Of a stretch of 64,000 nt of DNA, positions 37,191-59,438 are shown piece by piece. Both the position numbers and the translations under genes were made by a program. Position 1 is the stretch's first letter; every line of letters starts with the position of its first letter. The notes under the pieces are model-generated. The model did not search any database. It saw nothing but the letters and a program-made list of their open reading frames with translations, and was not told the DNA's origin. Source of the stretch: Chloroflexota bacterium. GTDB lineage: Bacteria > Chloroflexota > Dehalococcoidia > GIF9 > JBFMDU01. The stretch lies in assembly GCA_040753815.1 (NCBI GenBank), contig JBFMDU010000005.1, forward strand, positions 85,350 through 149,349, in the 5' to 3' direction.

Positions 37191-37198
37191 ACAGATTC

Positions 37199-41749: not shown

Positions 41750-41816
41750 ACCTTTATTTTCTCAACCCGATTGAACGACCATCCTGGTTAACATAATGGA
41801 ATATCTGACCTGTTCA

Positions 41817-41878: not shown

Positions 41879-41942
41879 GCCGCAAATCAAATAACCGCGT
41901 ATCGTACGGAACACCAAGCCTTTCGAAGAGGAGTACCGTAAA

Positions 41943-42437
41943 GTGGATATCAGGAAAGCTCTGACAGATGCCATGGAAGAATATTTCAATGGCGATACGA
42001 AGAGAATAAACCATGCCCGCAAAGTGACCGAATATGCCGAGAAACTAATCGACCTGGAAAAAGGAGACGGTGTAATTGTGCTGGGAGCATCAGTCCTCCA
42101 CGACATCGGCATTCACGAGGCGGAGAGGAAATATAACAGCACCGCCGGGAAATACCAGGAAATTGAGGGGCCGCCTATCGCTCGCAGCATATTAAATAGA
42201 CTCGGATTCCAGCCCGAGCAAATCGATGAAATATGCAACATCATTGCTCATCACCACAGCCCCGGAATAATCAATACCCAAAACTTCAAGATACTCTATG
42301 ACGCTGACTGGCTGGTGAATTTAAGAGATGAATACGATATCAAGGACCGGCAAAAGCTGACGAACATCATTGATCGCGTCTTCCTAACCGATACCGGCAA
42401 GTCCATGGCGCGGGCGATATACCTGGGAAAACACTGA
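41943..42437 (+). CDS. HD-domain phosphohydrolase
   Basis: RINHARKV, VLHDIG, AHHH, LYDAD. Confidence 0.9.
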   Translation: MDIRKALTDAMEEYFNGDTKRINHARKVTEYAEKLIDLEKGDGVIVLGASVLHDIGIHEAERKYNSTAGKYQEIEGPPIARSILNRLGFQPEQIDEICNIIAHHHSPGIINTQNFKILYDADWLVNLRDEYDIKDRQKLTNIIDRVFLTDTGKSMARAIYLGKH

Positions 42438-42495
42438 CAACAGACGAACTACGGGTAAAGCCACAAATTCGTACCGACAAGTATACTGCCTGCAC

Positions 42496-43215: not shown

Positions 43216-43288
43216 CGTCCACCACTTAGGAATATCGTGATTCCCGGCAGTCTATGTTTTCTGTTCTCAGGCTAACAACCATGCCAAC

Positions 43289-43795
43289 CTACTTTCGTAC
43301 GGGGCGTTGCTTTTCCAGCTTTTGAAATACCCGAAGAATCTTCTCATTCTGGTTTTTATCCAGATGCATATTGGCCATCATAAAAAGGATATGATCCTCC
43401 TTCTCTATGTGCTGACGCAACGTTGAAATGATGTGCTGTCCCTCGTACTTGACCACCTCTCTTGCATTACCATCGTTAGAGTTCTTGATTACACGAGCCA
43501 GGGCATCCTGGAACCTGTCATTGCTTGCCCGCAGGTACTCATGCTCCGCCAACATAACTCCTATGGGTCCACTGTCCCTGGGTAAAAACTTCTCTATCTC
43601 AGGGAACAACCCCTCCTCTTCCTTGATGAAATGAGTCCATATCTCATCCTTAAAGAACTTACCGTATCCCTGAAGACGTGAAATATCAGCCTTGATGTTC
43701 ATCCTGTCAAGAACTTCGTCAAGACCATCCAGTATTTTCAACACCTCCCGATGCTCCTCGCTCAAGATATCAGTCGGTTTAAATTGTGTGTCCAT
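43289..43795 (-). CDS. Hemerythrin-like protein
   Basis: LSEEHREV, THFIKEEEGLFP, MLAEH, HIEKEDHILF. Confidence 0.9.
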   Translation of the reverse strand: MDTQFKPTDILSEEHREVLKILDGLDEVLDRMNIKADISRLQGYGKFFKDEIWTHFIKEEEGLFPEIEKFLPRDSGPIGVMLAEHEYLRASNDRFQDALARVIKNSNDGNAREVVKYEGQHIISTLRQHIEKEDHILFMMANMHLDKNQNEKILRVFQKLEKQRPVRK

Positions 43796-43892
43796 TTTCT
43801 ACTTTTATTCCTCTTCCTCGATTATCCCCTTCCAAGAGCCGGTGTGGTTATAACCTCGTTGGAAAATATAGTTAACCTTCCCCCGACTAAAC

Positions 43893-43908
43893 AACGACAT
43901 AAGTCACA
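43893..43908. promoter_or_regulatory. Crp/Fnr-type box AACGAC-ATAA-GTCACA
   Basis: Upstream of the hemerythrin gene. Confidence 0.5.
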
Positions 43909-44027
43909 CTGCACCTAACAATATCCAGCGGGCGGCTATCAATGGCAGAGGGATAAAGCGCCAGATATCGTCAAGTACTAGAAGTTACCTCCGCTAGTGA
44001 TGTTCCCAATCCGGAAAACTACAAATG

Positions 44028-44411
44028 TTACGGGAAACAGCCAAGCTGACACCTGACAATCTTTATCTTCAACATGGTGGCGGTGTCGCCGATCTCCTTC
44101 AGACTGACCCCGAGTTCCGTCCTTAACTTGAATGCTTTTGCACAGGGGAGACTTCCATTGACGAGAGAGCCTTTCACTGCCTCAGCCATGACATCGCTAA
44201 TGCTTGCCTTGTCGAGGTCGTCATGCGTCGCCTTTTTTACGGCGAAGCATCCCAGCTGGCAATCTCTGATGCGTACTCCCATCTCATCTGCCGCATCCCC
44301 GATAGTTTTTGGCACCACTTTTAATTTTCCCGCTAATTCAAGAGCGCTGGAGCAGGGAAGATAGCCACCAACCAGAGAGGCTTTTATTTCATCCTTCAAT
44401 GTCGTCGCCAT
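44028..44411 (-). CDS. Small Cys protein with an internal duplication (LPC...CQLGCF x2)
   Basis: YLPCSSALELA...IRDCQLGCF and SLPCAKAFKL...IVRCQLGCF. Confidence 0.8.
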   Translation of the reverse strand: MATTLKDEIKASLVGGYLPCSSALELAGKLKVVPKTIGDAADEMGVRIRDCQLGCFAVKKATHDDLDKASISDVMAEAVKGSLVNGSLPCAKAFKLRTELGVSLKEIGDTATMLKIKIVRCQLGCFP

Positions 44412-44468
44412 GCTTAATACCCTCCAGAAATATCCTGTTTATTGTCGGACATTCGCCAAGAAGCCGTA

Positions 44469-44484
44469 AATGACTTTTGTCGGG
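44469..44484. promoter_or_regulatory. Crp/Fnr-type box AATGAC-TTTT-GTCGGG
   Basis: In the divergent promoter of the Crp/Fnr gene. Confidence 0.55.
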
Positions 44485-44535
44485 ATTCTATGGTAGTATT
44501 TCGATAGCCATACATAACTTTCGAGATTCTTACTG

Positions 44536-45198
44536 ATGCCTCCAACAATTAATTTCTTAAAATCACTACCCTACTTCGCCGCCTTGCGGCCAGCCACACT
44601 AGACAACATTGCCAGGACGGCGACGGAGCTTTCCTTCGCCAGGGGCGAGGTCGTCATACTGGAGGGAGAGCCCTGCCGCGGCTTATACATCGTCAGGATG
44701 GGGCGAGTGCGCATCTTCAAAAGTTCGGCTGAGGGACGGGAGCAAGTGCTGTACATCGCTGGCCCGGGCGATACCTTTAACGACGTCCCGGTCTTCGATG
44801 ACGGCGCCAACCCGGCCAGCGCTTCGGCACTAGAACCAGCCACCATCTACCTCATTCCCAGGCAGACAATGACCTACCTGGCAACCGACAGCCAGACGGC
44901 CCAGGCAATTATCAAGGTCTTCGCCACCCGCCTCCGCCACCTGACTACGATAGCTGAAGATCTCTCTTTCCGCAGTGTCCCCAGCCGGCTGGCCAAGCTG
45001 CTACTAAAGCTGGCCGTGGTCGAAGGCGGCGAAGCGCCAATCCCACAATTAACCCAGGACGAGATGGCGGCCATGGTCGGCTCGGTCAGGGATGTCGTCG
45101 GTCGGTCGCTTAGAACCATGACAGGCATGGGAGTTATCGAAATAAAGGGGAAGCGCATTACTATTACCGATCCCGATAAGCTTAAGGACATAAGTTGA
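44536..45198 (+). CDS. Crp/Fnr-family regulator (no FNR Cys cluster; DNR/HcpR-like)
   Basis: cNMP-binding fold (GRVRIFKSSAEGREQ, GDTFNDV); HTH LTQDEMAAMVGSVRDVVGRSL. Confidence 0.92.
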   Translation: MPPTINFLKSLPYFAALRPATLDNIARTATELSFARGEVVILEGEPCRGLYIVRMGRVRIFKSSAEGREQVLYIAGPGDTFNDVPVFDDGANPASASALEPATIYLIPRQTMTYLATDSQTAQAIIKVFATRLRHLTTIAEDLSFRSVPSRLAKLLLKLAVVEGGEAPIPQLTQDEMAAMVGSVRDVVGRSLRTMTGMGVIEIKGKRITITDPDKLKDIS

Positions 45199-45201
45199 GT
45201 C

Positions 45202-45217
45202 TGCGACAAAAGTCGTA
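45202..45217. promoter_or_regulatory. Crp/Fnr-type box TGCGAC-AAAA-GTCGTA
   Basis: Upstream of the ferredoxin/NOR operon. Confidence 0.65.
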
Positions 45218-45295
45218 TCACCATTGCCGCCCCTTGCCTACAATCACCCTGTCGCTTGACAAGGCAGGGGCTTGGTATAAATAAATAGAGGACTA

Positions 45296-45589
45296 ATGAA
45301 GACGGCCATACCCGAAGTTGACAGCGAAAAGTGCACCGGATGCGGGGACTGTGTCGAACAATGTCCCACCGATGCGGTTGAGGTGATTGATGGCAAGGCT
45401 GTCATCGTCAGGCCCGGCGACTGCACCTACTGCACCGACTGTGAAGCCTACTGCCCTGCCCACGCGATCCGATGCCCGTATGAAATCGTCCTCCTTCCGG
45501 CAGGAACCAGAAAACGTACTCCGGTGAGGAGGTCACACGGCAAAAGAGCAGATGGCACGCACACAAAGACACGCACATTCCGAAGGTAG
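45296..45589 (+). CDS. 2x[4Fe-4S] ferredoxin
   Basis: CTGCGDCVEQCP and CTYCTDCEAYCP. Confidence 0.92.
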   Translation: MKTAIPEVDSEKCTGCGDCVEQCPTDAVEVIDGKAVIVRPGDCTYCTDCEAYCPAHAIRCPYEIVLLPAGTRKRTPVRRSHGKRADGTHTKTRTFRR

Positions 45590-46100
45590 CGAAAATCCAG
45601 CCGCCAACCCTGTACCATCAGGGTGGCTGAAAACTTCCCGAAGTCGGCTCCGTTTCGAATTAGCTGGCCTGGCCTTTGCCTGTCGCCACGGCTTTGCCCC
45701 GGAGGACTACGCCCATCACCTGTGGAGCCGCGGTGCGGCGGCGTGGATGGGCAAGGAAAATCCCGACGCCGCCGAATACTTGCGTAAAGAAGCCGGAGCC
45801 TGCCGGGAGTTCTACCCCGAAGTAGCTATGTCCCTGATAAAGGCCCGCCCCGGGATGGCCGAACTTGTCTTCACCCGGGGCTGTCTCGGGGGATGGGGAG
45901 ACGACCAGTGGGCACTGGCCAGAAGTCTGGGACTGAACAAGAAACGCATCTGTGCCTACTGTCAGGAATCTTTCCGTGTCTGGACAAAGCAGTTAGGACT
46001 GGCATCACATATCGGCCCGTCAACGGATGGTCACTGCCACCTGCTGGTAGTAATAGATGGCGATTCGTTAGCGCCTCCAGGCGCTGACTGCAACAAATAA
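45552..46100 (+). CDS. Hypothetical Cys/His-containing protein
   Basis: 182-aa ORF filling the gap in the operon; RGC, CAYC, HCH. Confidence 0.6.
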   Translation: MARTQRHAHSEGSENPAANPVPSGWLKTSRSRLRFELAGLAFACRHGFAPEDYAHHLWSRGAAAWMGKENPDAAEYLRKEAGACREFYPEVAMSLIKARPGMAELVFTRGCLGGWGDDQWALARSLGLNKKRICAYCQESFRVWTKQLGLASHIGPSTDGHCHLLVVIDGDSLAPPGADCNK

Positions 46101-46221: not shown

Positions 46222-46644
46222 ATGGAAAAACACGAACGAGTCTGGCTGGGAATCCTGTGTGTCGTCTTTATCATCGTCAACGCCATCACCATCTCACCGC
46301 TGGTCCCCTGGCAGGAGTGGCAGGTCTGGTCAAAACCAGTCCCGGAAAAGATAATCCCGGTCGAGGTGGAAAATTACCGCTTCAAGCTCCCTCCACAGGG
46401 AATCGAGGCCAAAGCCAACCAGTACGTGGAGTTCGTCGCCACATCGAAGGACGTGACCTACGGTTTCGGGGTTTTCCGGCAGGATGGCTCCCTGGTTTTC
46501 CAGATGCAGGTCATACCCGGCCGTGAGAGCCGGCTTGCCTGGAAATTTGACGCCCCCGGCGTCTACGATGTCCGCTCCACCGAATACTCCGGGCCAAGAC
46601 ATCCGGAGATGTTCGTCAAGAACGCCATCCGGGTAACGGCATAG
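46222..46644 (+). CDS. Heme-copper oxidoreductase subunit II lacking CuA ligands
   Basis: One TM plus cupredoxin fold; DVTYGF (His->Tyr) and STEYSGPRHPEM (both Cys->Ser). Confidence 0.88.
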   Translation: MEKHERVWLGILCVVFIIVNAITISPLVPWQEWQVWSKPVPEKIIPVEVENYRFKLPPQGIEAKANQYVEFVATSKDVTYGFGVFRQDGSLVFQMQVIPGRESRLAWKFDAPGVYDVRSTEYSGPRHPEMFVKNAIRVTA

Positions 46645-46657
46645 AGGAGACACTGAA

Positions 46658-48364
46658 ATGCTGAAATTAGGCTGGCAAGAGAAATGGACACTAAGGTACG
46701 CAGTGGTCGCCCTCTTATTCTTAGCCCTGGCCGGTATCGAAGGCGTCATGATGCGTTCGCAATTAATATCGCCAACTTCACTGGAGAGCCTGGAAACGAC
46801 ACTGGCGGCACTCCGTGGCGGCAGTCAGTCGGGGCCGGCTGAGCTGTTTTACTCCGTCCTGACCGCCCACCCCATCGTCGGCATCTACGGCTTCGCCTAC
46901 ATGGCCGTCTTCGGCGCTTTTTACTTCCTGGTGCCATTCCTGCTGAACAAGCCAGTCCGCCACAAGCGCCTGGTTCCGGTCAATTTCTGGCTCCAGATTG
47001 CCGGTGTGCTGGTCTGCTGGGGAGCCGGTTTCTTCGCCCTGTTCAATGCCACCTACACCCTCTACTGGCCCTTGCCGGTAGCCTACGACCGGGTGCCGCT
47101 AATAGGCAGTATCGTCTTCGGCTTCGGCCTTGCCTTAATTGAAGCTAACGTCCTGCTCTTCGTTTTCAATGTTTTCAGCACCGTACTCAGCAAAAGCAAC
47201 CCGCATCCTTACAGCTTCCGCCAATTCCTTGCCTCGGCTTTCGGCATACCCCGCCTGTTAAAGCTGTTCGGCAGGAAACCGGCCAACGGCGGCGAGGTCA
47301 ACTATAACGACCTTCCTGTCTTCGTCGTCGCTGTCGGGCGCGGGTCTATTGATACCGTTATTAACGCCATCGTTCTGCTGACCGCCGGTGTGCTCATGCT
47401 GGTCTATGGCCTACCCGCCCTTATCCAGGGCATCATGCTCAACTCCGGCGCTGTGGACGCCCTCATTTATAAGAACTTCTTCTGGTGGGGGCTGGACATG
47501 ATTGCCGATGGCAACGTTCTCATGTACGCCGCCGGCACCTGGTACCTGTTGGTCCCTCTATTGGTGGGCCGCAAGCTCTACGGCGAATCCGTGGTAAGAA
47601 CCGTCATCCTGGCCGACCTGCTGGTGTCCATGGGCGTCTGGAGTCACCATCTGCTGGCCGACCAACCCCAACCCTTCGGCCTCCGCCTCATCTCCGGCCA
47701 GTTCATCACCTGGGGTGAGTTCTTCACCATGGGTCTGACCATGTTCGCCATCCTGATGACCATCTGGCTGGCCAGACCGGTCAAGTTCACCGCGCCGCTT
47801 AAGTTCGTCCTCGCCTCGGTCTTCGGATTTGCCGTCGGCGGTATCGCCGGCATCACCCAGGCCAACGTCGGCCTTAACGTCGTTCTCCACAACACCCAGT
47901 GGGTTATCGGCACCCACGGCCACATGATGCTGTTAGGAGGGCTAGCATCACTGCTGTTCGCTGTGATTTATGCCCTTATCCCGATGCTGACCAAAGCCGA
48001 AATCTGGAGCCAGAAGCTGGTCAGCGTCCACCTAGGGCTGTGGCTGCCCGGCGCCGTCCTCATGGCTGACTCCATGGGGCTGGCTGGCATCGAGGGCATG
48101 TTGAGGCGGACGCTCTACTCGGGCGGCGAGTACCAGTTGCACATGATTGTCGCTACTCTTGGCGGCATCCTAATGGCCGCTGGTTTTACCGTTTTCCTGG
48201 TCAACGTCATCAAGACGCTGGGGCTGAAGAATGTGCTCGGACTGGTCTTACCGGAACAGTGGCTGATGCCAAAGCCAGCCGTAGCGGCAGGCGTTATCCC
48301 GGCTACTGGATTGCCTGAACCAGCGCCGGTTCCTGTGACTGTAATCCAGAACATCCAAAGATAA
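46658..48364 (+). CDS. Heme-copper superfamily subunit I, gNOR-type nitric oxide reductase
   Basis: TAHP (low-spin His), WWGLDMIADGNVL in place of WxxGHPxVY, VWSHHL, THGHMM; about 13 TM helices. Confidence 0.8.
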   Translation: MLKLGWQEKWTLRYAVVALLFLALAGIEGVMMRSQLISPTSLESLETTLAALRGGSQSGPAELFYSVLTAHPIVGIYGFAYMAVFGAFYFLVPFLLNKPVRHKRLVPVNFWLQIAGVLVCWGAGFFALFNATYTLYWPLPVAYDRVPLIGSIVFGFGLALIEANVLLFVFNVFSTVLSKSNPHPYSFRQFLASAFGIPRLLKLFGRKPANGGEVNYNDLPVFVVAVGRGSIDTVINAIVLLTAGVLMLVYGLPALIQGIMLNSGAVDALIYKNFFWWGLDMIADGNVLMYAAGTWYLLVPLLVGRKLYGESVVRTVILADLLVSMGVWSHHLLADQPQPFGLRLISGQFITWGEFFTMGLTMFAILMTIWLARPVKFTAPLKFVLASVFGFAVGGIAGITQANVGLNVVLHNTQWVIGTHGHMMLLGGLASLLFAVIYALIPMLTKAEIWSQKLVSVHLGLWLPGAVLMADSMGLAGIEGMLRRTLYSGGEYQLHMIVATLGGILMAAGFTVFLVNVIKTLGLKNVLGLVLPEQWLMPKPAVAAGVIPATGLPEPAPVPVTVIQNIQR

Positions 48365-48444: not shown

Positions 48445-49131
48445 GTGATAGCATCAAAGCCAATGGAACATAAAGAGCGCCGTACCCTGCTGGAACTTCT
48501 GGAACCAGACACCCGGGAGAAACTGCAGAGCATAACCCAGAAGAAGTCCTTTACTGCCGGGGAACAAATATTTCCCCAGGGCTCACCGCCAACAGCTATC
48601 TATTTCATAACCTGCGGACAGGTCAAGGTAGCGCGTACCACGCCCGATGGGCATGAGATTATCCTGTGTATGCCCGGCCCTGGCGATTCTTTCTGCCCGG
48701 TGACTTTACTTGACGGCGGGCCGCAACTGGGCATGGCCCAGGCCGTGACCGATACCGAGGTAATGCGGGTCGACAGCCGCCAATTCCTCGCCCTCTGCCG
48801 CGAGCGCCCGCAACTGCAGGCCTCGGTACAGCAGGCGTGCCTGGGCGAGGTGCGGCGACTCGTCCAGCGCATGGAACTGCTCTCTTTCCGCACTTTGAGA
48901 CAGCGGCTGTCTACCGTCCTGCGGCATACCATCCGACGCCAGCGGTCCGGTCCGTGCCAGCCAGCAGAAATACGCATTACCCAGCAGGAACTGGCCCAAC
49001 TGGCCGGAGGCTCCCGGGAAAGCACCTCGCGGCTCCTCGCCATGTGGCAGCGGGAAGGCATCGTATCGCTCGGCCGGGGCCGCATCACCATTCTCGACCC
49101 AGACCGGCTTGAATCCCTATCTCGCGAGTAG
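48445..49131 (+). CDS. Second Crp/Fnr-family regulator
   Basis: GQVKVARTTPDGHE, HTH ITQQELAQLAGGSRESTSRLL. Confidence 0.92.
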   Translation: MIASKPMEHKERRTLLELLEPDTREKLQSITQKKSFTAGEQIFPQGSPPTAIYFITCGQVKVARTTPDGHEIILCMPGPGDSFCPVTLLDGGPQLGMAQAVTDTEVMRVDSRQFLALCRERPQLQASVQQACLGEVRRLVQRMELLSFRTLRQRLSTVLRHTIRRQRSGPCQPAEIRITQQELAQLAGGSRESTSRLLAMWQREGIVSLGRGRITILDPDRLESLSRE

Positions 49132-49172: not shown

Positions 49173-49188
49173 TGTGACAAACCTCACA
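49173..49188. promoter_or_regulatory. Perfect CRP-consensus box TGTGA-CAAACC-TCACA
   Basis: Centre about 31 bp upstream of GATAAT (49211), i.e. class II activation geometry for the 49253 operon. Confidence 0.75.
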
Positions 49189-49252
49189 GACATATGGTAA
49201 TACCTGTTACGATAATATGCTGTAATTAATCAGATGTGAGGAGGACTCGAAG

Positions 49253-49873
49253 ATGCTTGACCAGATTATTCTGCTGGCGACGGGGCTAACGGCTATCTAT
49301 CTCATCTGGCGGTTCGTCCAGGACTACCGACGCAAGGGAAAACCGGCACATGACATCGCCTATATTGTAGCTTTTGCCGTACTCCTGATAGCCGGGCTTC
49401 TGCTTATCGGCTTCGGATACGGCGTCCTCGGGTCGCCTCTGGTCGTGACCGTAGCTGTCCTAATCCCGGCTGGCATTGCCCTGGGGCTGGTTTCGGAATA
49501 CACGACTAAATGGCGGCTTGCCTATCTTATCTTCGCCATTGTTGGGCTTGTGGCTATCGCTGTTACCCGCTTCACCGGACCGGCCCTGGTTGCCACCATC
49601 ATCCTTGTCATCGTCCACTCCGTCAGTGGTCTGCTTATCTTCGCCCTACCCATAGTTGCCGTCAACAAAGGCACGGCTCCCAGTGGTTTCATCGGCGTCA
49701 CTGTCGGCGGTGCCCTTATCGGCATCGGCGGCATTGCCATGGCGGCACTCAAGACCGGCGGCCAGCTTCTCTTCTTCAGCGCACCGGTGGTCTTTGCTAT
49801 CTTAGCACCGCTTCTGCTGCTAATGACCCTGGCCTTTACCTGGGGCTTTGTCAAGAAAATCAAAGCGGCTTAG
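49253..49873 (+). CDS. Polytopic membrane protein (about 7 TM), unknown function
   Basis: Highly hydrophobic 206 aa; AGGAGG RBS. Confidence 0.8.
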   Translation: MLDQIILLATGLTAIYLIWRFVQDYRRKGKPAHDIAYIVAFAVLLIAGLLLIGFGYGVLGSPLVVTVAVLIPAGIALGLVSEYTTKWRLAYLIFAIVGLVAIAVTRFTGPALVATIILVIVHSVSGLLIFALPIVAVNKGTAPSGFIGVTVGGALIGIGGIAMAALKTGGQLLFFSAPVVFAILAPLLLLMTLAFTWGFVKKIKAA

Positions 49874-49914: not shown

Positions 49915-51393
49915 ATGCAGGCTCTTGCCAGCAGGTTCGATTATCTCTTCCACTCAACCAGGGGCCTGGCGCTGGTGGCCATTGCTCTCATCGGTCTCGT
50001 CACCGCCGTCTTCGGTACACTCTCCGGACCGATGGCCGACCTCGGCCTCAAAGACATCTCCGTCCGCATCTTCGGCATGCAGTTGGTCGAGGCCGAGCGT
50101 GAGGCGCGCATCATCATGCTCTACCACACCATCGCCATGGCGGTAATCGCTATCGAGACCTATTTCATCACCGCCATCGTCCCGATGAAGAAGAGCCAGC
50201 AGGCTAATATCAACGCCACTATAACCGTCGGCTACATCACGTCGCTTGTCTTTGGTCTGCTCTTCGCCTACTTCGGCGGCAACTTCATCTTCCACGGCCT
50301 TTTTATCTTCGGACAGTCTCTGGTCTTCTTCGCCGGCCTCCTGCTGGCCAAAGCCCTCTGGCCCTGGAGCAAGGAGTACCGCCAGCCAAATCGCGACTAC
50401 GCCCGCACCCGCGGTGGCATTGACCTGGAGCGCGCCGCCTTCTTCACCATGGCCGTCTGTACGCTCGGTTCGGCGCTGTTCGGGGCGATACCCGGCTCGA
50501 TGTTCGGCACCGGCTTTGAATCTTTCCTGGCCGAAGACATCGTACGCGAGCCGCACAAAACGACCCTTCAACTCTCGGTCATCGGCCACCTCCATATCAT
50601 GCTGACGCTTATCGCCGTTGCCCTGTCCCTTATCCTTGTCCGGTGGATAGACTTCAAGGGCTGGATGCACAAAGTATCCATGCCGCTTATCATCGCCGGT
50701 TCCATCGTTGTTACCCTGGGCGTCTGGCTGGTGGTCCCATTCGAGGCCATCGCCCACTACATCATCTACGCCGGCTCGGTCATCGTCATGCCGGCGGCGC
50801 TTTTTCTGGTGATATTCGCCTGGCGCAAGCTCATCCGTAACCGTTTTGCACAGTTAAACATCAAGAACTGGACCTTCTGGCAGGGAGTAAGCGCCCTGCT
50901 CCACGACCCGCTCAAGTTCGGCACCTTCTGGCAGGTCGTCTACATGAACTTCGTCGTCACCTTCGTCGGCATCTTCATGGCCATCCGGCTCGACAAAGTG
51001 ATGCGCATGATGCCGCTCCGCGAGGAGCGAATCACCCTGACTGGCCACTGGCACATCCTGGCCGGCATTATCGCCACCATTCTTCTGCTCTACTACGCCG
51101 ACCTCTCCGGCCTCAAAGGCAAGGTGAGGCAGTGGTTCGGCTGGCTGGTCATCGTCGGCTCCGACCTCGCTTTTGCCGCAGTCACACTATTCGAGACCAA
51201 ACGTCTCTACGTAGCCGAGTCTGCCCAACAGCCTCTGGTGAACATCACCATGCTGTTGACCGACGTCGGCCTGATTCTGGTCCTGCTGATCCTGGCGGCT
51301 TTCTTGGTCTACCGGCTGGTGGATCTCTTCCATAGCAAAGGCAGGTGGACTAAGGAGCTCGCCGTGGCCGAACCGCCGGAGGTGCGGCGATGA
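49915..51393 (+). CDS. About 12-TM membrane protein with three periodic His motifs (possible divergent HCO-fold protein)
   Basis: LYHTIAM, IGHLHIML and TGHWHIL spaced 156 and 153 aa apart. Confidence 0.75.
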   Translation: MQALASRFDYLFHSTRGLALVAIALIGLVTAVFGTLSGPMADLGLKDISVRIFGMQLVEAEREARIIMLYHTIAMAVIAIETYFITAIVPMKKSQQANINATITVGYITSLVFGLLFAYFGGNFIFHGLFIFGQSLVFFAGLLLAKALWPWSKEYRQPNRDYARTRGGIDLERAAFFTMAVCTLGSALFGAIPGSMFGTGFESFLAEDIVREPHKTTLQLSVIGHLHIMLTLIAVALSLILVRWIDFKGWMHKVSMPLIIAGSIVVTLGVWLVVPFEAIAHYIIYAGSVIVMPAALFLVIFAWRKLIRNRFAQLNIKNWTFWQGVSALLHDPLKFGTFWQVVYMNFVVTFVGIFMAIRLDKVMRMMPLREERITLTGHWHILAGIIATILLLYYADLSGLKGKVRQWFGWLVIVGSDLAFAAVTLFETKRLYVAESAQQPLVNITMLLTDVGLILVLLILAAFLVYRLVDLFHSKGRWTKELAVAEPPEVRR

Positions 51394-52292
51394 AGGGCGC
51401 TGTCATCCTGCTGATTGCAGTGACCCTGCTCGCAGTTGGCTGCTCCACCCCGGCGGCAACGACCCCGCCGCAGTTCGAGACCGGCGTTGACCCGGCCTCG
51501 TGGGCACGGGTACCCATCGGCGATTTCCTGATGGGACAACATGAACATAAGACCTCTGTCAACTACGATTACGAAATCATGGTGACGCCGGTAAGCAACG
51601 CCCAGTTTGCCCGGTACCTCAACTCGGCGTTGGCGGCAAGTAAGGTCAAGATTTCCGGCAACTTCGTTGTCGGCTACTACCCCGGAGACACGTTCCACGG
51701 CTACCGGCATGAGATGAGAATCGACCCCGGCGACTATCCTCATTTCCCACTCAGTGACCGTGACTCCCGGATGTCCTTCGATGGCAAGACTTTCACCGTC
51801 AAGCCTGGCTATGAGAACCACCCGGTGACCACAGTCACCTGGTTCGGCGCCAAGGCATACTGCGAGTCTATTGGAGGACGCCTTCCCACCGAAGCCGAAT
51901 GGGAAAAGGCCGCCCGCGGCACCGATGCCCGGCCTTTCCCCTGGGGCAACGGTATCACCCCGGCCAACGCCAACTACTACAACAGCCATGACCCGTTCGA
52001 GAAAGGCATCGGTGCTATCGGCAATACCACGCCAGTCGGCTTCTACAACGGCAAGGCCTATGATGGTTTCGCTACTGTCGACTCCCCAAGCCCCTACGGC
52101 CTGTACGATATGGCCGGCAACGTCTGGCAATGGACGGCGGATATTTATGAGGGTGTACACTATCGCTATCTCCGCGGCGGCAGTCACGCCGATTACGGTT
52201 ATAATCTGCGTGCATGGACGCGCAATAGCGTCCGTCCCGACTACTATGGCCCGAGCATCGGCTTCCGCGCCGTTCGGGACGTGAAGAAATAA
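51390..52292 (+). CDS. FGE-sulfatase/SUMF1-fold lipoprotein (NirV-like)
   Basis: Lipobox LAVGC; VSNAQF, HPVTTVTW, RLPTEAEWEKAARG, YDMAGNVWQW, RGGS, GFR; no catalytic Cys pair. Confidence 0.85.
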   Translation: MKGAVILLIAVTLLAVGCSTPAATTPPQFETGVDPASWARVPIGDFLMGQHEHKTSVNYDYEIMVTPVSNAQFARYLNSALAASKVKISGNFVVGYYPGDTFHGYRHEMRIDPGDYPHFPLSDRDSRMSFDGKTFTVKPGYENHPVTTVTWFGAKAYCESIGGRLPTEAEWEKAARGTDARPFPWGNGITPANANYYNSHDPFEKGIGAIGNTTPVGFYNGKAYDGFATVDSPSPYGLYDMAGNVWQWTADIYEGVHYRYLRGGSHADYGYNLRAWTRNSVRPDYYGPSIGFRAVRDVKK

Positions 52293-52294: not shown

Positions 52295-53173
52295 ATGGCA
52301 GTTTACTCTATGCCAGGACAGTTCGGGAGAAGGCTCAGGGCTTACTGGAGCCTGACCAAGAGCCTGCAGACGGCCCTCCTGCTGGCGACCGGCATTGCCG
52401 GCTATCTGAGCGCCCGCTGTCCTGTCTTTGCCTGGCAGACTGTGCTGGCCCTGGCCGCTAGCCTGTTCCTGGCCATCGCCGGCAGTACCGTACTCAACAT
52501 GGTCTATGACCGCGATATCGACTTCGCCATGTCCCGCACCTGCCGTCGTCCTTTACCTTCCAGACTGGTTTCACTCAGAGAAACGCTGACGGTGGGCCTA
52601 TTGCTGTCATTTGCCGGTGTTGCCTGGGCCTTTGTGATGAGCCCGCTTTATGGCACTATCGTTCTTGCCGGGGTCTTCTTCGACGTGGTTATTTATACTC
52701 TGTGGCTCAAGCGTCGGACGCCCTGGTCAATCGTCTGGGGCGGGCTGGCTGGAGGTATGCCCATCCTGGCCGGGCGCGCCCTCGGCACCGGACAAATCGA
52801 CCTGGCCGGATTGACGCTGGCCGTAGCGGTGCTTTTCTGGATACCGACGCACATCGTCACCTTCAGCATCAAGTACGCCGATGACTATAGAAACGCCGGA
52901 GTGCCGGTAATACCCAACGCTTACGGGCTAAAGGCGGCGCGGCTGGTGATTGCTGTTTCGACCTGTCTGGCGGCGGCCGCCATGCTGGCATCGGGGTGGC
53001 TCATCGGCATCCGCTGGGGATTCCTCTACGCCGTGTCCGGCCTTGGCGCGGTGCTCGTCGCTCTTGCTCTGGTCACCGTCATCAGGGCTTCCCCGAAGCT
53101 GAACTTTGCCCTTTTCAAGATGGCTTCGGTCTATATGCTGGCTTCGACGGCGGTCATCGCCGCCGGCGCCTGA
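52295..53173 (+). CDS. ctaB: Protoheme IX farnesyltransferase (heme O synthase)
   Basis: NMVYDRDIDFAMSRTCRRP, YTLWLKRRTP, GGMPILAG, FWIPTH, DDYRNAGVP. Confidence 0.92.
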   Translation: MAVYSMPGQFGRRLRAYWSLTKSLQTALLLATGIAGYLSARCPVFAWQTVLALAASLFLAIAGSTVLNMVYDRDIDFAMSRTCRRPLPSRLVSLRETLTVGLLLSFAGVAWAFVMSPLYGTIVLAGVFFDVVIYTLWLKRRTPWSIVWGGLAGGMPILAGRALGTGQIDLAGLTLAVAVLFWIPTHIVTFSIKYADDYRNAGVPVIPNAYGLKAARLVIAVSTCLAAAAMLASGWLIGIRWGFLYAVSGLGAVLVALALVTVIRASPKLNFALFKMASVYMLASTAVIAAGA

Positions 53174-53211: not shown

Positions 53212-53937
53212 ATGAAATCGAAAACCGGTATGGTGCTGCGCATTGTGGCTATTGTCCTCATGGGCATGGCAACGGTGTTCACACTTTTAGGCGGACTTGG
53301 TACCGTCTGTATTGCATGGAACGCCGACAAGTACCCAGCGGCGGCATTTGGTGTATTCGTGCCTTTTATGCCCGTTTACCAGACATTCGTCTACACTAAA
53401 GTCATCACCGCCCTGATCATGTCGGCCGTTGTCTATGCCCTGGTGAAAGGCGATAAGTGGGCTTACTGGGGCGCGGTCGGGACGCTCGTCGTCGGTCTCG
53501 CCGCGGCCGCACTTCAGATGTTCTATACCAGCACCCTGAAAGGCGTTTCTTTCTTCCAGACGCCGCCGACCAATGTCCGCTTCTACATTACTCTGCTAAC
53601 TTTGGTCTTCTTCCTGATTCTACTTATCCCCGGTATTAAAGAGCGGGCCTCAATGAGCGGGCCGTGGAAGTCGAAGGGGACTGGTGCTATGACCGGCGGC
53701 GTGACTGCCATCGTCACCGGCATCATCGCCCTGACCACACCCTTCTGGACCGCGGAATCACACACCGTCGATGGCAATAACCTGGTCTATGTCTTCGAAA
53801 CACCACTGATGGTCTTCGGCTGGGTGGTACTCTTCACCGGCATCGTTCTGGTTACTTATGTCATCCTCGGCCCAAGCCGTGAGGCAGTAATCGCCTCACT
53901 AAAGAAATGGTTAAGGATAGCACCAGCGGCATCTTAG
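53212..53937 (+). CDS. Hypothetical membrane protein
   Basis: Six hydrophobic segments; GGGAGG RBS; last gene of the operon. Confidence 0.75.
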   Translation: MKSKTGMVLRIVAIVLMGMATVFTLLGGLGTVCIAWNADKYPAAAFGVFVPFMPVYQTFVYTKVITALIMSAVVYALVKGDKWAYWGAVGTLVVGLAAAALQMFYTSTLKGVSFFQTPPTNVRFYITLLTLVFFLILLIPGIKERASMSGPWKSKGTGAMTGGVTAIVTGIIALTTPFWTAESHTVDGNNLVYVFETPLMVFGWVVLFTGIVLVTYVILGPSREAVIASLKKWLRIAPAAS

Positions 53938-54035: not shown

Positions 54036-57000
54036 CTACTCGAACCGGTTATTCCTTACCCCTACCACCATCTGGGCGATGTACATAGCATCGAAGATGT
54101 CCAGCTTGTCATTGCCGGTGTCATGCTTGACGCAGGCGGCATTGACAGCATTGATTTGAGAAGCCGGCCGCACCCCGACAACATACTGGGCAATGAACAT
54201 GGCATCAAAAACATCCACCGTGCCATTGCCGTTGGTATCACCGCGCCTGAAAGTCACCGTCTTGGCGCTGTCCTCGGGGACGTTGCCTCCGCCAGTGGCG
54301 GCAGTTATTGACTGGAAGGCGACGGTAAAGGTATAGGCGGTGTCCTTGTCGCCGTTGAGTTTCATCAGCAGTTTCACCACGGTGGAGTTATTGGGCTGCT
54401 CCGGCGAGGCGACATTGCTGACGCCGAAAACGCCGGTGGTGGCGTTGAAAGTGGGGTTAAGGTAGGGAGTGACCTCCCCAACACCGGTGAACTCCATTCC
54501 GGAGAAACCGCCTATCATTCCAGTAGCCTGGGCTGACGAGGCGGTAGCCGAGTATGCCCCGATACCTCCAGCGATGGTGGCCGTGTTACCCGTAGCCGGA
54601 TCCTTGATGCGGTTGATTTTCACGCTGACAACAGCAATGTCGCCGGCATCGATCCCCTGAATCAGTGCCGTCTCAGCGACCATCTGGCCGGCGGCGTAAG
54701 TATCGAAAGACAGGGTTGTGCCGTAGCCGATACCGCTTACCCCGCCGTCAGCTTTGGCAAAGAAATAGTATCTTTTAGGCCCAGCAAGCCCGGTCAGGTT
54801 GGCGCTGAAAGCGCCGGTTGCTGTTTTCGTTTCGAGAGCGGTATAAGTAGGAATAAGGGGCCACGAAATCCCGTATCCGAAACTGACGTTCACTGATGTC
54901 GCCGAGCCGAGCGAGGTGAGATTGCCATTAAGCGTGGCTGTATTAACCGCCACATTGGTCGCCGCCAGCGTCGTTACCGCCGGGGCTACAATTGCCGCTA
55001 GGGTGGTAAAAGACGTGTCATCCCCGTAGGCAATGCCGGCGGTGCCGCCGTCAACTCTGGCGCGATTGTGGTATAAAGTGCTGACGCTAAGGCTTGTGAT
55101 AGCGGCGCTGAACGGACCGGTAACAGTCCTGGCCTGAGATGGCGTCGTTATGCCATAAGCAGTAGTCGTCCCGTATTCGAACGACACGTTGACTGTCGTT
55201 GCCAGGCCGAGCGAAGCGAGGTTGCCATTGAGGGTTGCGGTGATGTCACGAATGTCGCTGGCGCTGCCGGTGGTCACGGCAAGCGCTAAAGGAGCGTAGT
55301 GGAGGATAGTACCCCATCGGCCAACAGCAAAGACATCGGATGCGGAGCTACCCCAAATCCCCATGAGGTTATTGGAAGGGCTGCCGCCGGACATCGTGGC
55401 CCAGGCGCTGCCGTTGTAGTGAAGAATAATGCCACCGTCCCCAACCGCAAAGACGTCGGAGCCGGAACTGCCCCAGACCCCCCAGAGAATGCTGGTTACG
55501 CCGGAAGTCATGGCGCTCCAGGCAGTGCCGTTGTAGTGGAGGATGGTGCCGCCTGCGCCCACGGCGAAGACATCAGAGGCGGAACTACCCCAAACGCCAT
55601 AAAGCAGGTTGTTAGTGCCGCTGGTCATGGCATTCCAAGAACTGCCGTTATAACGGATGATAGTGCCGTTAGCTCCGACGGCGAAGATGTCTGAAGCCGA
55701 GCTTCCCCATATGCCATAAAGATTGTTCCCTGTACTGCTGGCCACAGCGCTGAAAGCGCTGCCGTTGTAGCGAAGGATAGAGCCACTGTCCCCGGCAATA
55801 TAGATGTCCGAAGCGGAACTTCCCCAGATACCATAGTAGTTCCCGAAGGTTCCGGTATTGATGTAGCTCCAGGAACTACCGTTGTAGCGCAGAATGACGG
55901 CGGCTCCGCCCGAGGGGACGGTGGCGAAGATATTGGAGGCGGAAGCGCCCCAGATTCCATAAGGCGTCCAACCATAGCTGTAGCCGGTCATGGCGCTCCA
56001 GGCAGTGCCGTTGTAATGGAGGATGGCACCGCTGTCTCCCACGGCGAAGACATCTGTGGCTGAGCAGCCCCAGACACCCTTCAGCCAGTTGGCGGTGCCG
56101 GTAGCCATGTCGCTCCAGGCAGTGCCGTTGTAGTGCACAATCATGCCGCCGTCACCCACCGCGAAGATGTCCGAGGCGGATGTTCCCCAGATGCCGTTCA
56201 GATGGTAGCTCTTACCGCCGAATGCGTAATTCCAGGCGCTGCCGTCATAGCGGTAGATATTCGCGTTCCACCCGGCAGCGTAAACGTTGCTACCGGAGCT
56301 TCCCCAGACCCCTAGGTAGATGAGGCCAGTGCCGGAGGTCATAACGCTCCAAGTATTACCGTTGTAATGGAGAATCGTGCCGGCCCCACCCACCGCGAAA
56401 ACATCGGATGCCGAATTGCCCCAAACACCGTACAGGAAACTTTCGGTACCGGAGGTCATGGCGCTCCAGACACTGCCGTCGTAATGGTATATTTTCCCGC
56501 TATACCCAACAGCGAAGACATCCGAAGCGGAACTGCCCCAGACGCTGTTGAAATCGTACCAGATGGCACCGCTCGTCATAGTGGTCCAGGACGTGCCGTT
56601 GTAGCGGAGTATGACGCCGCCGTTCCCCACAGCAAAGACATTTGTTGACGAACTGCCCCAGATGCCGTTGAGGTTTTGCGTGGTGCCGGAGGTCATGGCA
56701 CTCCAGGCAGTGCCGTCGTAGTGGAGGATGGTACCGCCGGACCCGACGGCGAAGACATCAGATGCGGAACTGCCCCAGACCCCGGTCAGGTCCGCGATCG
56801 TCCCGCTGGTCATGGCACTCCAGGCAGTGCCGTTATAGTGGACGATAGTACCGTGCTGACCCACGGCGAAAACGTTCGAAGACGAACTGCCCCAGACTGC
56901 CTGTAATCCGTATCCCTGCGTCAGGGGGTTCTGCCACTGCCATGACATGGGGAAAGCCATGTCAGAGCCATAAACCGTGCCGGCAGCGCCAGCCTCGGCC

Positions 57001-59438
57001 TTTGCCCGGTAGTGGTAGGCTGGCCCAGTTGCCAGGCCGGTAAGGCCGGCGCTGAAGGGGCCGGTGGCGGTCCTTGCCTGTGGGGTCGTAGTGCTCCCAT
57101 AGTTTGTGGTTTGCCCGTACTCAAAAGAGACATTGACAGTAGTGGATGAACCGAGCGAAGTCAGGTTGCCATTCAGGGTTGCCGAGGTGGCCGTCACGTC
57201 GGTGGCCGTTACTGTCGCCACGGCCGGCGGTGTCGCCGTTGTAAAGGATATATCAGTACCGTTGGCGATGCCCGCGATGCCGCCATCAGCCTTGGCCCGG
57301 GCATGGTAGCCAGTGCCGTTGGCGAGTCCGGTCACGTCCTGGCTAAAGGTACCGGTAGCGGTCTTGGCCTGCGGCGGCGTCGGCGTGCCGTAGCTGGTAG
57401 TCGTACCGTACTCAAAATAGACATTGACGCTGGTAGCCGAGCCGAGCGATGTCAGGTTGCCGTTCAGGGTTGCCGAGTTAGAAGTTACCGCGCTGGCGGC
57501 GGATGTTTCGACAGTCGGGGCTACAATGGGCACCCCTACCCGGGCGCGCAGGCACACATTCAGGCCGCCGGCATAGCCGCTACCGTCCGTCCACGCACCA
57601 GAGTTACCCGCCCGGACAAATGATACTCCTGTCTGTAGCGTGGGATTACAGTAACCTTCCCAGTAGTGCTCCACCGGTATCGGGTAGTTGTAACCGGGGG
57701 TAGTCATCTTCACCGCTATTGTGAACTGCTGGCCGGCAGTGAAGTTAATGGCAGTGGTCAAGGGAATCGAGTAGTAGCCTGCCTCGGCACAGGTGCCCGA
57801 CTGGGAAGTCAGTTGCGCGCCAAAGGAGCCGTTGTAAACGTAGGCCTGGTACTGGGCGTTGTTGCTGGTGGTCCAGAACTCCACCCGGCTAAGGCCGCAG
57901 GCCGAATCCGCAGTAAAGACGCTGGCCATCCAGCCTGACGTCGGCGTCGCACCACCGAAGCCAAGCGAGTTTACCCACCCCGCCTCGTCCCAGTAGTACA
58001 GCTTGTCGCTAGCACCGGGGGTGATGTAGCCATTACTACCGTGGTACGACCCGACGGAGCTGAGATTGGCCGAGCCGTAGCACAGGTAGAAGTAGCCGCT
58101 GTTGGCCCAGGCCGTGCCCCAGCTGTTCTTGACAATCCAGGCGCCGGTTCCGCCGCCAGCGGGGTGGGCCACAGCATCATCCCAGCCGACGATGGTGACG
58201 GCATGGTTGGTACTCTGCGTGCAGTTGGGCCAGTAGTAGATATTGCCGGTATACAACTTTGAGTTGTCATGACGGTACGAGACCCTCAACGGGCCGTAGG
58301 TGTAAAGAGCGTTCTTGATTTCGGTGGTCTGGCTGGCGGAACTAGCCACGATGCGCAGGTCGGTCACATTAACCACGGTGGTGCAGGTATCGTTGCAGGC
58401 CTGGCTGTTGATAGTACTGGTGTTGTAGGGATTGCATGATTCCAGCCGCGCTCCCTTCTTGATGAGGGTCTCGGTGCTCATGATGATGTTGCCGCCGCCG
58501 TTGCACCGGTTCCCCACCAAGAAGTAGTACGCCGGGTCGGTACAGCAGGCGAGGTTCTGCTCGGAGAAGTCGTAGGTTGTCCCGTCAACGATGGCAATTC
58601 GTGACTCCAGTGAAGCCAGCGCGGCGAAGGTCCAGCAGGTGCCGCACGGGTTCTGGTCTTTGACCGGCGTCACTTTGCTCTGCGTCCTCCAGTCAAAGGT
58701 GTTGGGCAGTGCCTCACGGCGGACCGAGGCCGACGAGGTCGTCACGGGTATCTGCTTGAGGTGATTCAAGTCCATAGGAAGGGGAATATCGCCATACTGC
58801 GGCCCGGCCTGGAGGCGGTCGGCACTGCGTGATTTCTGCCATTCCTCGAACTGGGGGTTCAGCGGGGCGAGCTGGAACTGGCCCTGCGGGTCAGCCGCAG
58901 CAAGCCATGATGGCTTCGGGAGAGGCATGGGGCTGAATGAGGCGGCCAGAACAATGAGCACGGCCATGACGGAGATAGCTGCCCTGGCGATTGACATCAC
59001 CCGCCGCTTCTTTTCACCAGTTAGCGGGATGTTCCCGGGTTGGCGTTTGAGCAGGCAGGCCAGTACCATGCCCAGCATGATGATGTTGAGCGTGAGCGAC
59101 TGCCAGTGGCCGAGAGGGATGGCGTTCCCGAAGCAGCCGCAATCGCTTTGGGTGCCGGCGAGCAGGGCCTGGATGTTAGCGGTGATAAAGGCAAGCACCA
59201 GCACCAGCGCCAGGGCGGCGCCAGCGGCTGGCTGTCTCATCGGGCCGAGGAATAGCGCCAGCCCAACTGCGATTTCAAGCCAGGGCAGGATGGGGACAAG
59301 CGCCCCGGCGGGGGCAGGCAATGCACTGAGGAAAGCGGCAATGGCGTCCGGGGCCTGCTGACCCGACGTCAGCTTAAGTACTCCCGCGGAAAGGAAGAGC
59401 ACCCCGAGGATGTAGCTAAATATCTTTACCATGGACAT
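54036..59438 (-). CDS. Multidomain surface protein: MauE/DoxX - C1A cysteine peptidase - lectin-like - Ig/FN3 repeats - 14 beta-propeller repeats - dockerin
   Basis: DCGCFG (MauE); DQNPCGTCWTF, NHAVTIVGW, WIVKNSWG (papain Gln/Cys/His/Asn); 4x ATLNGNLxSLG; 14x GxWGSSxSxxFAVG; GDTNGNGTVDVFDA (dockerin). Confidence 0.9.
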   Translation of the reverse strand: MSMVKIFSYILGVLFLSAGVLKLTSGQQAPDAIAAFLSALPAPAGALVPILPWLEIAVGLALFLGPMRQPAAGAALALVLVLAFITANIQALLAGTQSDCGCFGNAIPLGHWQSLTLNIIMLGMVLACLLKRQPGNIPLTGEKKRRVMSIARAAISVMAVLIVLAASFSPMPLPKPSWLAAADPQGQFQLAPLNPQFEEWQKSRSADRLQAGPQYGDIPLPMDLNHLKQIPVTTSSASVRREALPNTFDWRTQSKVTPVKDQNPCGTCWTFAALASLESRIAIVDGTTYDFSEQNLACCTDPAYYFLVGNRCNGGGNIIMSTETLIKKGARLESCNPYNTSTINSQACNDTCTTVVNVTDLRIVASSASQTTEIKNALYTYGPLRVSYRHDNSKLYTGNIYYWPNCTQSTNHAVTIVGWDDAVAHPAGGGTGAWIVKNSWGTAWANSGYFYLCYGSANLSSVGSYHGSNGYITPGASDKLYYWDEAGWVNSLGFGGATPTSGWMASVFTADSACGLSRVEFWTTSNNAQYQAYVYNGSFGAQLTSQSGTCAEAGYYSIPLTTAINFTAGQQFTIAVKMTTPGYNYPIPVEHYWEGYCNPTLQTGVSFVRAGNSGAWTDGSGYAGGLNVCLRARVGVPIVAPTVETSAASAVTSNSATLNGNLTSLGSATSVNVYFEYGTTTSYGTPTPPQAKTATGTFSQDVTGLANGTGYHARAKADGGIAGIANGTDISFTTATPPAVATVTATDVTATSATLNGNLTSLGSSTTVNVSFEYGQTTNYGSTTTPQARTATGPFSAGLTGLATGPAYHYRAKAEAGAAGTVYGSDMAFPMSWQWQNPLTQGYGLQAVWGSSSSNVFAVGQHGTIVHYNGTAWSAMTSGTIADLTGVWGSSASDVFAVGSGGTILHYDGTAWSAMTSGTTQNLNGIWGSSSTNVFAVGNGGVILRYNGTSWTTMTSGAIWYDFNSVWGSSASDVFAVGYSGKIYHYDGSVWSAMTSGTESFLYGVWGNSASDVFAVGGAGTILHYNGNTWSVMTSGTGLIYLGVWGSSGSNVYAAGWNANIYRYDGSAWNYAFGGKSYHLNGIWGTSASDIFAVGDGGMIVHYNGTAWSDMATGTANWLKGVWGCSATDVFAVGDSGAILHYNGTAWSAMTGYSYGWTPYGIWGASASNIFATVPSGGAAVILRYNGSSWSYINTGTFGNYYGIWGSSASDIYIAGDSGSILRYNGSAFSAVASSTGNNLYGIWGSSASDIFAVGANGTIIRYNGSSWNAMTSGTNNLLYGVWGSSASDVFAVGAGGTILHYNGTAWSAMTSGVTSILWGVWGSSGSDVFAVGDGGIILHYNGSAWATMSGGSPSNNLMGIWGSSASDVFAVGRWGTILHYAPLALAVTTGSASDIRDITATLNGNLASLGLATTVNVSFEYGTTTAYGITTPSQARTVTGPFSAAITSLSVSTLYHNRARVDGGTAGIAYGDDTSFTTLAAIVAPAVTTLAATNVAVNTATLNGNLTSLGSATSVNVSFGYGISWPLIPTYTALETKTATGAFSANLTGLAGPKRYYFFAKADGGVSGIGYGTTLSFDTYAAGQMVAETALIQGIDAGDIAVVSVKINRIKDPATGNTATIAGGIGAYSATASSAQATGMIGGFSGMEFTGVGEVTPYLNPTFNATTGVFGVSNVASPEQPNNSTVVKLLMKLNGDKDTAYTFTVAFQSITAATGGGNVPEDSAKTVTFRRGDTNGNGTVDVFDAMFIAQYVVGVRPASQINAVNAACVKHDTGNDKLDIFDAMYIAQMVVGVRNNRFE
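55300..56910 (-). repeat. 14 tandem ~39-41-aa coding repeats (two 7-bladed propellers predicted)
   Basis: Consensus LxGVWGSSASDVFAVGxxGTILHYNGTAWSAMTSG. Confidence 0.85.

Follow-up and report, generated by a model that had tools for sequence, protein, structure and literature searches.

The closest described systems for the protein considered here are the heme-copper oxidases (HCOs), whose subunit I carries heme ligands on helices II and X and binds the CuB or FeB metal through one His on helix VI and a His-His pair on helix VII. To our knowledge, canonical HCOs are the sole users of hemes O and A. Another relevant protein is NnrS, a 12-helix heme- and copper-containing membrane protein of the nitric oxide (NO) stress response that is under CRP/FNR-family control. 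The HCOs also include divergent members such as gNOR, which has an altered set of active-site His residues and a subunit without CuA, and for which the use of quinol has been proposed (Murali et al. 2024, PMC11214002). Here we describe a 492-residue membrane protein, called the target below, that is encoded at 49915-51393 on the forward strand of a 64,000-nucleotide stretch of DNA (the window; positions 85,350 to 149,349 of contig JBFMDU010000005.1) from the Chloroflexota assembly GCA_040753815.1. It has 12 transmembrane (TM) helices and an HCO-subunit-I-like predicted fold, and it is encoded in a cassette with a lipoprotein and a CtaB-like heme O synthase. We favor the reading, at a probability of roughly 0.55, that the target is the core of an undescribed and very divergent HCO-like heme O enzyme for the reduction of O2 or NO.

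The His motifs lie where the initial annotation of this DNA had placed them, as the translation of the reading frame confirms. Residues Y70-H71 of the LYH71 motif are encoded at 50122-50127, G224-H225-L-H227 at 50584-50595 in TM6, and G377-H378-W-H380 at 51043-51054 in TM10; two further His residues stand in the motifs FIFH127G and IAH281Y. Twelve long helices, the number suspected earlier, are found both by hydropathy and by DSSP assignment of an AlphaFold2 model built on a 119-sequence alignment (pLDDT 83, pTM 0.87). Helices 1 to 6 span residues 15-36, 59-88, 93-119, 124-147, 171-196 and 217-244, and helices 7 to 12 span 250-272, 277-314, 332-357, 368-398, 402-427 and 435-472. Loops rich in Lys and Arg occur at 89-92, 148-170, 243-249, 305-331 and 399-405, so that both termini would be cytoplasmic if our reading of the loops by the positive-inside rule is correct. 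With that orientation, the seven His residues named above all fall in the outer (P-side) half of even-numbered helices. By sequence and the DSSP assignment of the model, H71, H225/H227 and H378/H380 lie 8-12 residues from the outer helix ends, and H127 and H281 lie 3-4 residues inside them.

Is the target built from three copies of a four-helix unit, as the initial annotation had supposed? Slices of the family profile were aligned to one another with hhalign. Unit 2 (residues 166-320) matches unit 3 (321-475) with a probability of 96.2% (E 2.6e-9), in a register that sets E207..R211..GHLH on E371..R372..GHWH. The match of unit 1 to unit 3 has a probability of 35% (E 4e-4) and places H71 on H380; that of unit 1 to unit 2 reaches 6.8%, with H71 on H227 and H127 on H281. 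A canonical A-family HCO alignment (27 sequences), sliced in the same way to serve as a control, gave a much weaker signal, with a best probability of 11%. The three-unit repeat of the target is statistically real.

The predicted fold points to the HCOs. When the model was compared with the PDB by Foldseek, ranks 1 to 25 were all HCO subunit I (template-modelling scores 0.45-0.58, probability 1.00, about 510-580 aligned columns), and they included the A, B and C families (aa3, ba3 and cbb3) as well as the NO reductase cNOR. An HCO fold had been proposed from the sequence beforehand, and the model agrees with it. HCO subunit I accounts for 30 of the 50 matches listed; the others listed, which include a complex I subunit, an H+/Na+-pyrophosphatase, MurJ, MATE transporters and G protein-coupled receptors (GPCRs), score 0.25 or less, and CtaA is not among the 50. 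TM2 carries the invariant H71 and TM10 the invariant H378-W-H380; placed by sequence and DSSP, they stand at a depth that would match the HCO ligands of helices II and X and are candidates for their equivalents. The remainder of the site departs from the paradigm. In place of the canonical CuB/FeB set, TM6 carries H225-L-H227, TM7 has no invariant His, and a single His, H281, stands at the start of TM8. Instead of a subunit II with a cupredoxin fold, the coupled periplasmic partner has an FGE-sulfatase fold. The target also differs from gNOR, which is recognized by a PF00115 match and by an Asp where helix VI would have its CuB His; neither trait is seen in the target, which PF00115 does not match and whose TM6 has HxH.

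The residues that make up this arrangement are strongly conserved. H71, H127, H225, H227, H281, H378 and H380 are invariant in 119 close homologues, and all seven are kept in a sister subfamily whose members are 37-42% identical to the target. Among 17 divergent sequences, down to 22% identity, six of the His residues are invariant and H71 is absent only from one N-terminally truncated sequence. The initial annotation had pointed to conservation of the His residues as a telling check, and conservation does hold down to 22% identity; E207, E371 and W379 are likewise invariant over the whole identity range of the family. The family is large. More than 3,230 clusters were found in a collection of 5.8 billion proteins, the best 120 of which are all 63-89% identical to the target and are labeled, nearly all, as hypothetical. 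At 50% clustering there are 292 family representatives, including full-length relatives of 22-45% identity. Carriers number at least 589 species-representative genomes, from Chloroflexota, Ignavibacteria, Calditrichota (including Caldithrix abyssi), Aminicenantes, Marinimicrobia, KSB1 and Desulfuromonadales (Desulfuromonadaceae). No NCBIfam model matched the target, and literature searches found no description of the family. As judged by sequence searches, it is a conserved, unnamed family that has neither a Pfam nor an NCBIfam model.

What the target is encoded with is also highly constant. Neighborhoods were counted in 80 loci from different species genomes, and they reveal an obligatory module of target, FGE-fold lipoprotein and CtaB-like heme O synthase in an essentially invariant order. 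In the window the lipoprotein gene (51390-52292, forward strand) is coupled to the end of the target gene at 51393 by an ATGA overlap of 4 nucleotides, and an FGE-like gene directly follows the target in 79 of the 80 loci. The lipoprotein matches PF03781 over the full length of the profile (2.8e-40) and has the lipobox AVGC18. It had earlier been called NirV-like; its place in the FGE family stands, but the Cys pair of the FGEs is absent. In an alignment to SUMF1, the positions of the catalytic, Cu-binding Cys336 and Cys341 are occupied by a gap or Gly, and the best PDB match is the non-catalytic paralogue pFGE/SUMF2 (1Y4J). Among 79 lipoprotein homologues no Cys is conserved besides that of the lipobox; H107, E108 and H144 of the lipoprotein are conserved. 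A natural fusion of target and FGE domain also exists (P0122, 785 residues), in which residues 476-772 are 47% identical to the window lipoprotein (E 3e-92) and the former signal peptide of the lipoprotein has become a thirteenth helix. The fusion therefore argues that the two proteins bind each other, with the FGE domain at the outer side of the membrane, and such a complex is favored as well by the 4-nucleotide overlap and the 79/80 adjacency.

The third gene of the module, ctaB (52295-53173, forward strand), begins 2 nucleotides past the FGE stop codon and encodes a UbiA-family protein that scores 212.5 bits against the heme O synthase model TIGR01473 (cut-off 210.3). It is present in 74 of the 80 loci, and five of the other six end before its position; in L085 no ctaB match was found, though about 2.5 kb follow. 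The tight linkage of the target to lipoprotein and ctaB that was noticed in the window is thus general, given the 80 neighborhoods and the fusion.

Which protein uses the product of the cassette synthase? Among 50 carrier genomes, 17 have no PF00115 gene at E <=1e-5, and one of these is a single-contig chromosome (CP070708.1). In all 17 the cassette copy is the sole ctaB match at E <=1e-20, the exception being a weak second match of 80 bits in G086. The lack of an HCO and the presence of only the cassette ctaB in these 17 carriers make the target, therefore, the likely user of heme O. One might suppose instead that the target handles heme: it could modify the heme O made by CtaB, perhaps taking the place of heme A synthase in a reaction that needs no O2, or it could chaperone that heme and insert it into client oxidases such as gNOR. 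The obligatory coupling to ctaB would suit such a role, as would the gNOR genes that adjoin the cassette here and in its nearest relative, and neither this genome, with a completeness of about 90%, nor the carriers G015 and G025 yielded a CtaA (PF02628). The lack of CtaA in this genome had been stated in the initial annotation, and the PF02628 search agrees. There is also a lead, and only a lead, in the spacing of His residues 71, 127, 225-227 and 281 on TM2, TM4, TM6 and TM8, which we take to resemble that of the four His residues of Bacillus subtilis CtaA. We nevertheless regard heme handling as decidedly unlikely: the 17 carriers without any PF00115 gene offer no HCO client, three carriers (G006, G043 and G055) own a normal CtaA, hhalign of the target family against CtaA gives a probability below 1%, the fold matches listed are mostly HCO subunit I with CtaA not among them, and the sister subfamily mostly lacks ctaB.

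The narrower proposal of the initial annotation, that the target stands in for the missing CtaA, is disfavored. There is no CtaA profile similarity and no CtaA among the 50 fold matches listed; three carriers have their own CtaA, and in 17 a modified heme would find no HCO to use it. Taken with the HCO, CtaA and UbiA content of this genome, the HCO-less carriers argue against an oxidase-helper role as well as against replacement of CtaA. This genome has a second UbiA-family gene (contig 20 of G000, 112812-113627), whose 157 bits fall short of the cut-off of the heme O synthase model.

Several results weigh against an HCO-like heme O enzyme, and they are best considered together. The target has no Pfam match at E <=0.1, COX1 (PF00115) included, and neither a phmmer search with the target nor one with the family profile gave any match at E <=10 among all PDB sequences. 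The hhalign comparison of the target family with an A-family HCO alignment, tried in global and local modes, reached a probability of 2%, and a comparison with thirds of HCO found nothing. Foldseek gave weak E-values, none better than 1.6e-3, with root-mean-square deviations of 7-10 Å. Given no profile-profile signal and weak Foldseek E-values, the case for homology to HCOs is one of fold, helix-by-helix placement of ligands and genomic context. The cross-link Tyr of the O2 reductases has no counterpart at its position in the target, where the residues four after H225 and H227 are M229 and T231, and neither TM6 nor TM7 has an invariant Tyr. No electron-input subunit is encoded in the cassette, and a tally of flanking genes names no electron donor. 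Of the 17 HCO-less genomes, 16 are metagenome-assembled and may be incomplete. Finally, ctaB scores barely above the curated cut-off, and that leaves some doubt that its prenylated product is heme O.

Some of these points would suit a different protein, a His-lined transporter or sensor of metal ions (Cu, Fe or Zn) that merely resembles HCO subunit I and whose UbiA neighbor prenylates a substrate other than heme. Seven invariant His residues plus Glu inside TM helices could line such a path, true FGEs are known to bind Cu(I) on the fold that the lipoprotein shares, the synthase score is marginal, and no HCO sequence homology was detected. Yet the lipoprotein lacks the Cu-binding Cys pair of the FGEs, and the cassette UbiA proteins of 18 genomes score 180-231 bits against the heme O synthase equivalog, some of them just below the cut-off. 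The fold matches, moreover, are specific to HCO subunit I rather than to transporters, and no metal-homeostasis genes recur among the neighbors. We consider a transporter or sensor very unlikely.

Weighing these matters, we think it likely that the target is the core of a heme-binding enzyme of the HCO fold that depends on heme O. The specific chemistry, reduction of O2 or NO, is a more tentative proposal, somewhat short of even odds. A scenario for such an enzyme can be drawn from the conserved residues. A low-spin heme would be bound between H71 on TM2 and H380 on TM10, and H378 would carry a second, high-spin heme, probably heme O made by the cassette synthase, much as hemes are held by helices II and X of HCOs. 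A rearranged non-heme metal site, of Fe or Cu, might be formed by H225/H227 and H281, perhaps with H127, together with E207 and E371; it would replace the canonical His of helix VI and His-His pair of helix VII. Because the two His residues of each HxH pair must point to opposite sides of their helix, TM6 may bridge two centers, as helix X does. The lipoprotein would cap the outer face in place of subunit II, and since it has no recognizable redox site, the electrons would most likely come from menaquinol. The enzyme would reduce O2, NO or both, for detoxification or for low-level respiration in anaerobes and microaerophiles, and a CRP/FNR-type regulator would switch it on.

A bolder version can be imagined, in which the family is a surviving, near-symmetric form of the triplicated HCO ancestor and all three four-helix units are used for cofactors. 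The HxH of TM6, with H127 and H281, would then bind one more cofactor, a third heme or else a second non-heme metal center, and the chemistry in anaerobes could be that of NO, either reduction or something unprecedented such as dismutation, with the FGE-fold subunit in place of subunit II. We hold this version to be unlikely.

How would such an enzyme be regulated? Directly upstream of the cassette in the window (48445-49131, forward strand) is the gene of a 228-residue CRP/FNR-family regulator, with the Pfam domains cNMP_binding and HTH_Crp_2. Its recognition helix, RESTSR, has the CRP-like pattern R-E-x-x-x-R, it has no N-terminal Cys cluster of the Fnr type, and its best PDB relatives are CRP/FNR-family proteins, DNR among them. 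In about 46 of the 80 loci the cassette is preceded by a gene for a Crp homologue. A perfect palindrome, TGTGA-N6-TCACA, is present at 49173-49188, 65 bp upstream of the first cassette gene, and is the sole perfect match in the 64-kb window. Of 71 loci, 25 have this box ahead of the cassette, where background would predict about 2.3, an enrichment of some 10-fold. In the window the box and the -35 of a promoter-like site (-10 GATAAT, 49211-49216) overlap; this is a kind of site whose count is not above that in shuffled sequence; the geometry of box and -35 would, in our reading, fit a class II activator. For the Fnr box TTGA-N6-TCAA the window shows no enrichment, and its three matches there are all away from the cassette.

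The surroundings of the cassette bear on what might induce it. The cassette closes a block of the window that holds gNOR, three hemerythrin-domain genes, a ferredoxin gene and two CRP/FNR genes. The block also encodes a 369-residue protein with two cupredoxin domains, of the multicopper-oxidase type, which the initial annotation labeled nirK, and one of its hemerythrin proteins has the arrangement DUF438-hemerythrin-DUF2249. With nirK, gNOR and hemerythrin genes in one block, NO would be the more likely trigger in this genome.

The gNOR-type HCO lies outside the cassette, at 46222-48364 on the forward strand, and comprises a subunit II of 140 residues and a subunit I of 568 residues. Subunit I (46658-48364) matches PF00115 at 1e-62 and has the Asp-for-His replacement of gNORs: in alignment to PDB oxidases, the sequence WWGLDMIADGNV sets Asp on the CuB His of helix VI (the His of GHPEV). 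Subunit II is cupredoxin-like, with a weak COX2 match and no clear CuA match. This gNOR is the only PF00115 gene of the genome, which is Dehalococcoidia-like and about 2.0 Mb in size.

Does the target, then, serve gNOR or another nearby NO enzyme as an accessory or maturation subunit? The two adjoin directly in the window and in the nearest relative, L043, and complete gNOR operons lie 1-5 kb from genes of the sister subfamily in L142 and L144, so that gNOR is physically linked to the family in four loci. But L043 is the only one of 80 other loci of the target's own subfamily in which gNOR adjoins the cassette; a gNOR-like PF00115 gene is present in at most a few of the 50 carriers, and the 17 already mentioned have no PF00115 gene of any kind. 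The identity of 60-89% that the target keeps across phyla is, in addition, more typical of a catalytic core. An accessory role seems to us very improbable indeed. The association with gNOR that had been expected from the window is thus lineage-specific with respect to the cassette, at 1 of 80 loci, though gNOR does reappear near the sister subfamily.

The sister subfamily deserves a closer description. Its members are about 445-480 residues long and make up at least 649 clusters, and they usually lack the FGE and ctaB genes. Neighbors were read in eight loci, including L139 (contig 557 of G015), L140, L142 and L144; ctaB was present in one of the eight, complete gNOR operons in two, a flavodiiron protein in two, Hcp/Prismane in one, AhpC in two, and DUF438-hemerythrin-PAS and DUF166 proteins in three each. 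These neighbors are typical of the oxidative and nitrosative stress genes of anaerobes. The motif WWGLDMVADGNV is visible in the gNOR of L142, and the L144 copy ends before the motif. In L142 (2761-4382) gNOR subunit I appears as two overlapping open reading frames of 229 and 316 residues, with the N-terminal part in another frame by tblastn, which is a frameshift or an assembly error.

One or two small His-bearing membrane proteins usually accompany the module. The first, mp206 (49253-49873, forward strand; 206 residues, seven helices), has no Pfam or NCBIfam match and has an invariant His, H122. Homologues are present in 49 of the 80 loci, often with a second copy after ctaB. Its AlphaFold2 model has a pLDDT of 95.8, and Foldseek returned for it only generic seven-helix bundles (rhodopsins and GPCRs). 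The second, mp241 (53212-53937, forward strand; 241 residues), has conserved C33 and H184 and only a sub-threshold DUF7144 match, and has homologues in 40 of the 80 loci. The two proteins show no detectable kinship by BLASTP (E 2.4). A Pfam tally of 102 flanking open reading frames from 37 loci found nothing recurrent beyond CRP/FNR regulators and a few other genes, namely those of multiheme cytochromes, Rrf2 and DUF438-hemerythrin proteins.

Other features of the window may be recorded here. The putative nitrite/NO island at 34750-45600 holds the three hemerythrin-domain genes, the two-cupredoxin-domain gene, the ferredoxin gene and the first of the two CRP/FNR genes, and in addition encodes a DsrE-like protein, a 951-residue Fe-S flavoprotein, an HD-domain protein and a 192-residue cupredoxin/COX2-like protein. 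Between a hemerythrin gene and the gene of that regulator, at 44028-44411 on the reverse strand, is encoded a protein of 127 residues without a Pfam match; it consists of two similar halves with the pattern LPC...C-x3-C (…GGYLPCSSALELAGKL…RDCQLGCF). An open reading frame of 182 residues without a family match (45552-46100) overlaps the ferredoxin gene by 38 nucleotides and precedes the gene of gNOR subunit II. Beyond the cassette, at 54036-59438 on the reverse strand, lies the gene of an 1800-residue protein whose N-terminal membrane domain is MauE/DoxX-like; the protein also contains a C1 peptidase domain of the papain family, a lectin-like domain and extended arrays of repeats of about 40 residues of the type WGSSASDVFAVG, with a dockerin-like tail.

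What would such an enzyme mean? If the target is a true heme O enzyme near the ancestor, no heme O enzyme would have been known before it outside the canonical HCO families. Should it prove to be a reductase, an enzyme is being overlooked when O2 tolerance and the turnover of NO and N2O in anoxic sediments, groundwater and bioreactors are predicted from genomes. A cultured relative, Caldithrix abyssi, could serve as an experimental system for the family. In this strict anaerobe a ctaB gene "displaced" from the cox cluster has been seen as a rearrangement that disables Cox maturation (PMC5317091). A locus from a metagenome-assembled genome of Caldithrix abyssi (L100) has the order target, FGE, ctaB. 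The displaced gene (Cabys_3115) may, more simply, be a member of the cassette.

How, finally, does the target compare with the systems that are known? The gNOR encoded 1.5 kb upstream is a PF00115 member with Asp for one His, whereas the target matches no HCO model and has other ligands and another partner. NnrS shares with the target its 12 helices, but there is no match of PF05940 to the target at E <=0.1. CtaA/COX15 (PF02628), like the target, repeats a four-helix unit in which the second and the fourth helix bear His; it has 8 TM helices against 12 in the target, and acts on the product of CtaB. Among the HCOs, the C-family CcoN of cbb3 and the NorB of cNOR (3MK7, 8SMR, 9G6B and 3O0R) are similar in size, at about 450-470 residues, and give template-modelling scores, normalized to the database structure (TMt), of 0.52-0.58. 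The Glu residues near the His set of the target recall, from established NO reductase structures, the His3-Glu FeB site of those enzymes. Unlike cbb3 and cNOR, the cassette has no genes for c-type cytochrome partners, and there is no sequence match; we know of no use of heme O by C-family oxidases or by cNOR.

The best query-normalized match is the B-family CbaA of Thermus thermophilus ba3 (1EHK and 4G7R), with a score of 0.58. Both ba3 and the modeled target have 12 TM helices in three four-helix arcs and an HxH on helix X, and both are tied to a prenylated heme of the CtaB type, the target by gene linkage. Even the numbering is close, as the ba3 ligands, which we take to be H72, H233, H282/H283 and H384/H386, stand near H71, H225/H227, H281 and H378/H380 of the target. 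The differences are as plain. There is no detectable sequence similarity; TM6 of the target has HxH instead of a single His, one His stands at the start of TM8 where ba3 has His-His at the end of helix VII, TM4 has an extra invariant His, and the cross-link Tyr is missing. The partner is an FGE-fold lipoprotein and not a cupredoxin subunit II. A further difference from ba3 is that the triplication remains visible in the target's sequence, and because it does, the long-discussed idea that the oxidase fold arose from a four-helix unit becomes directly testable.

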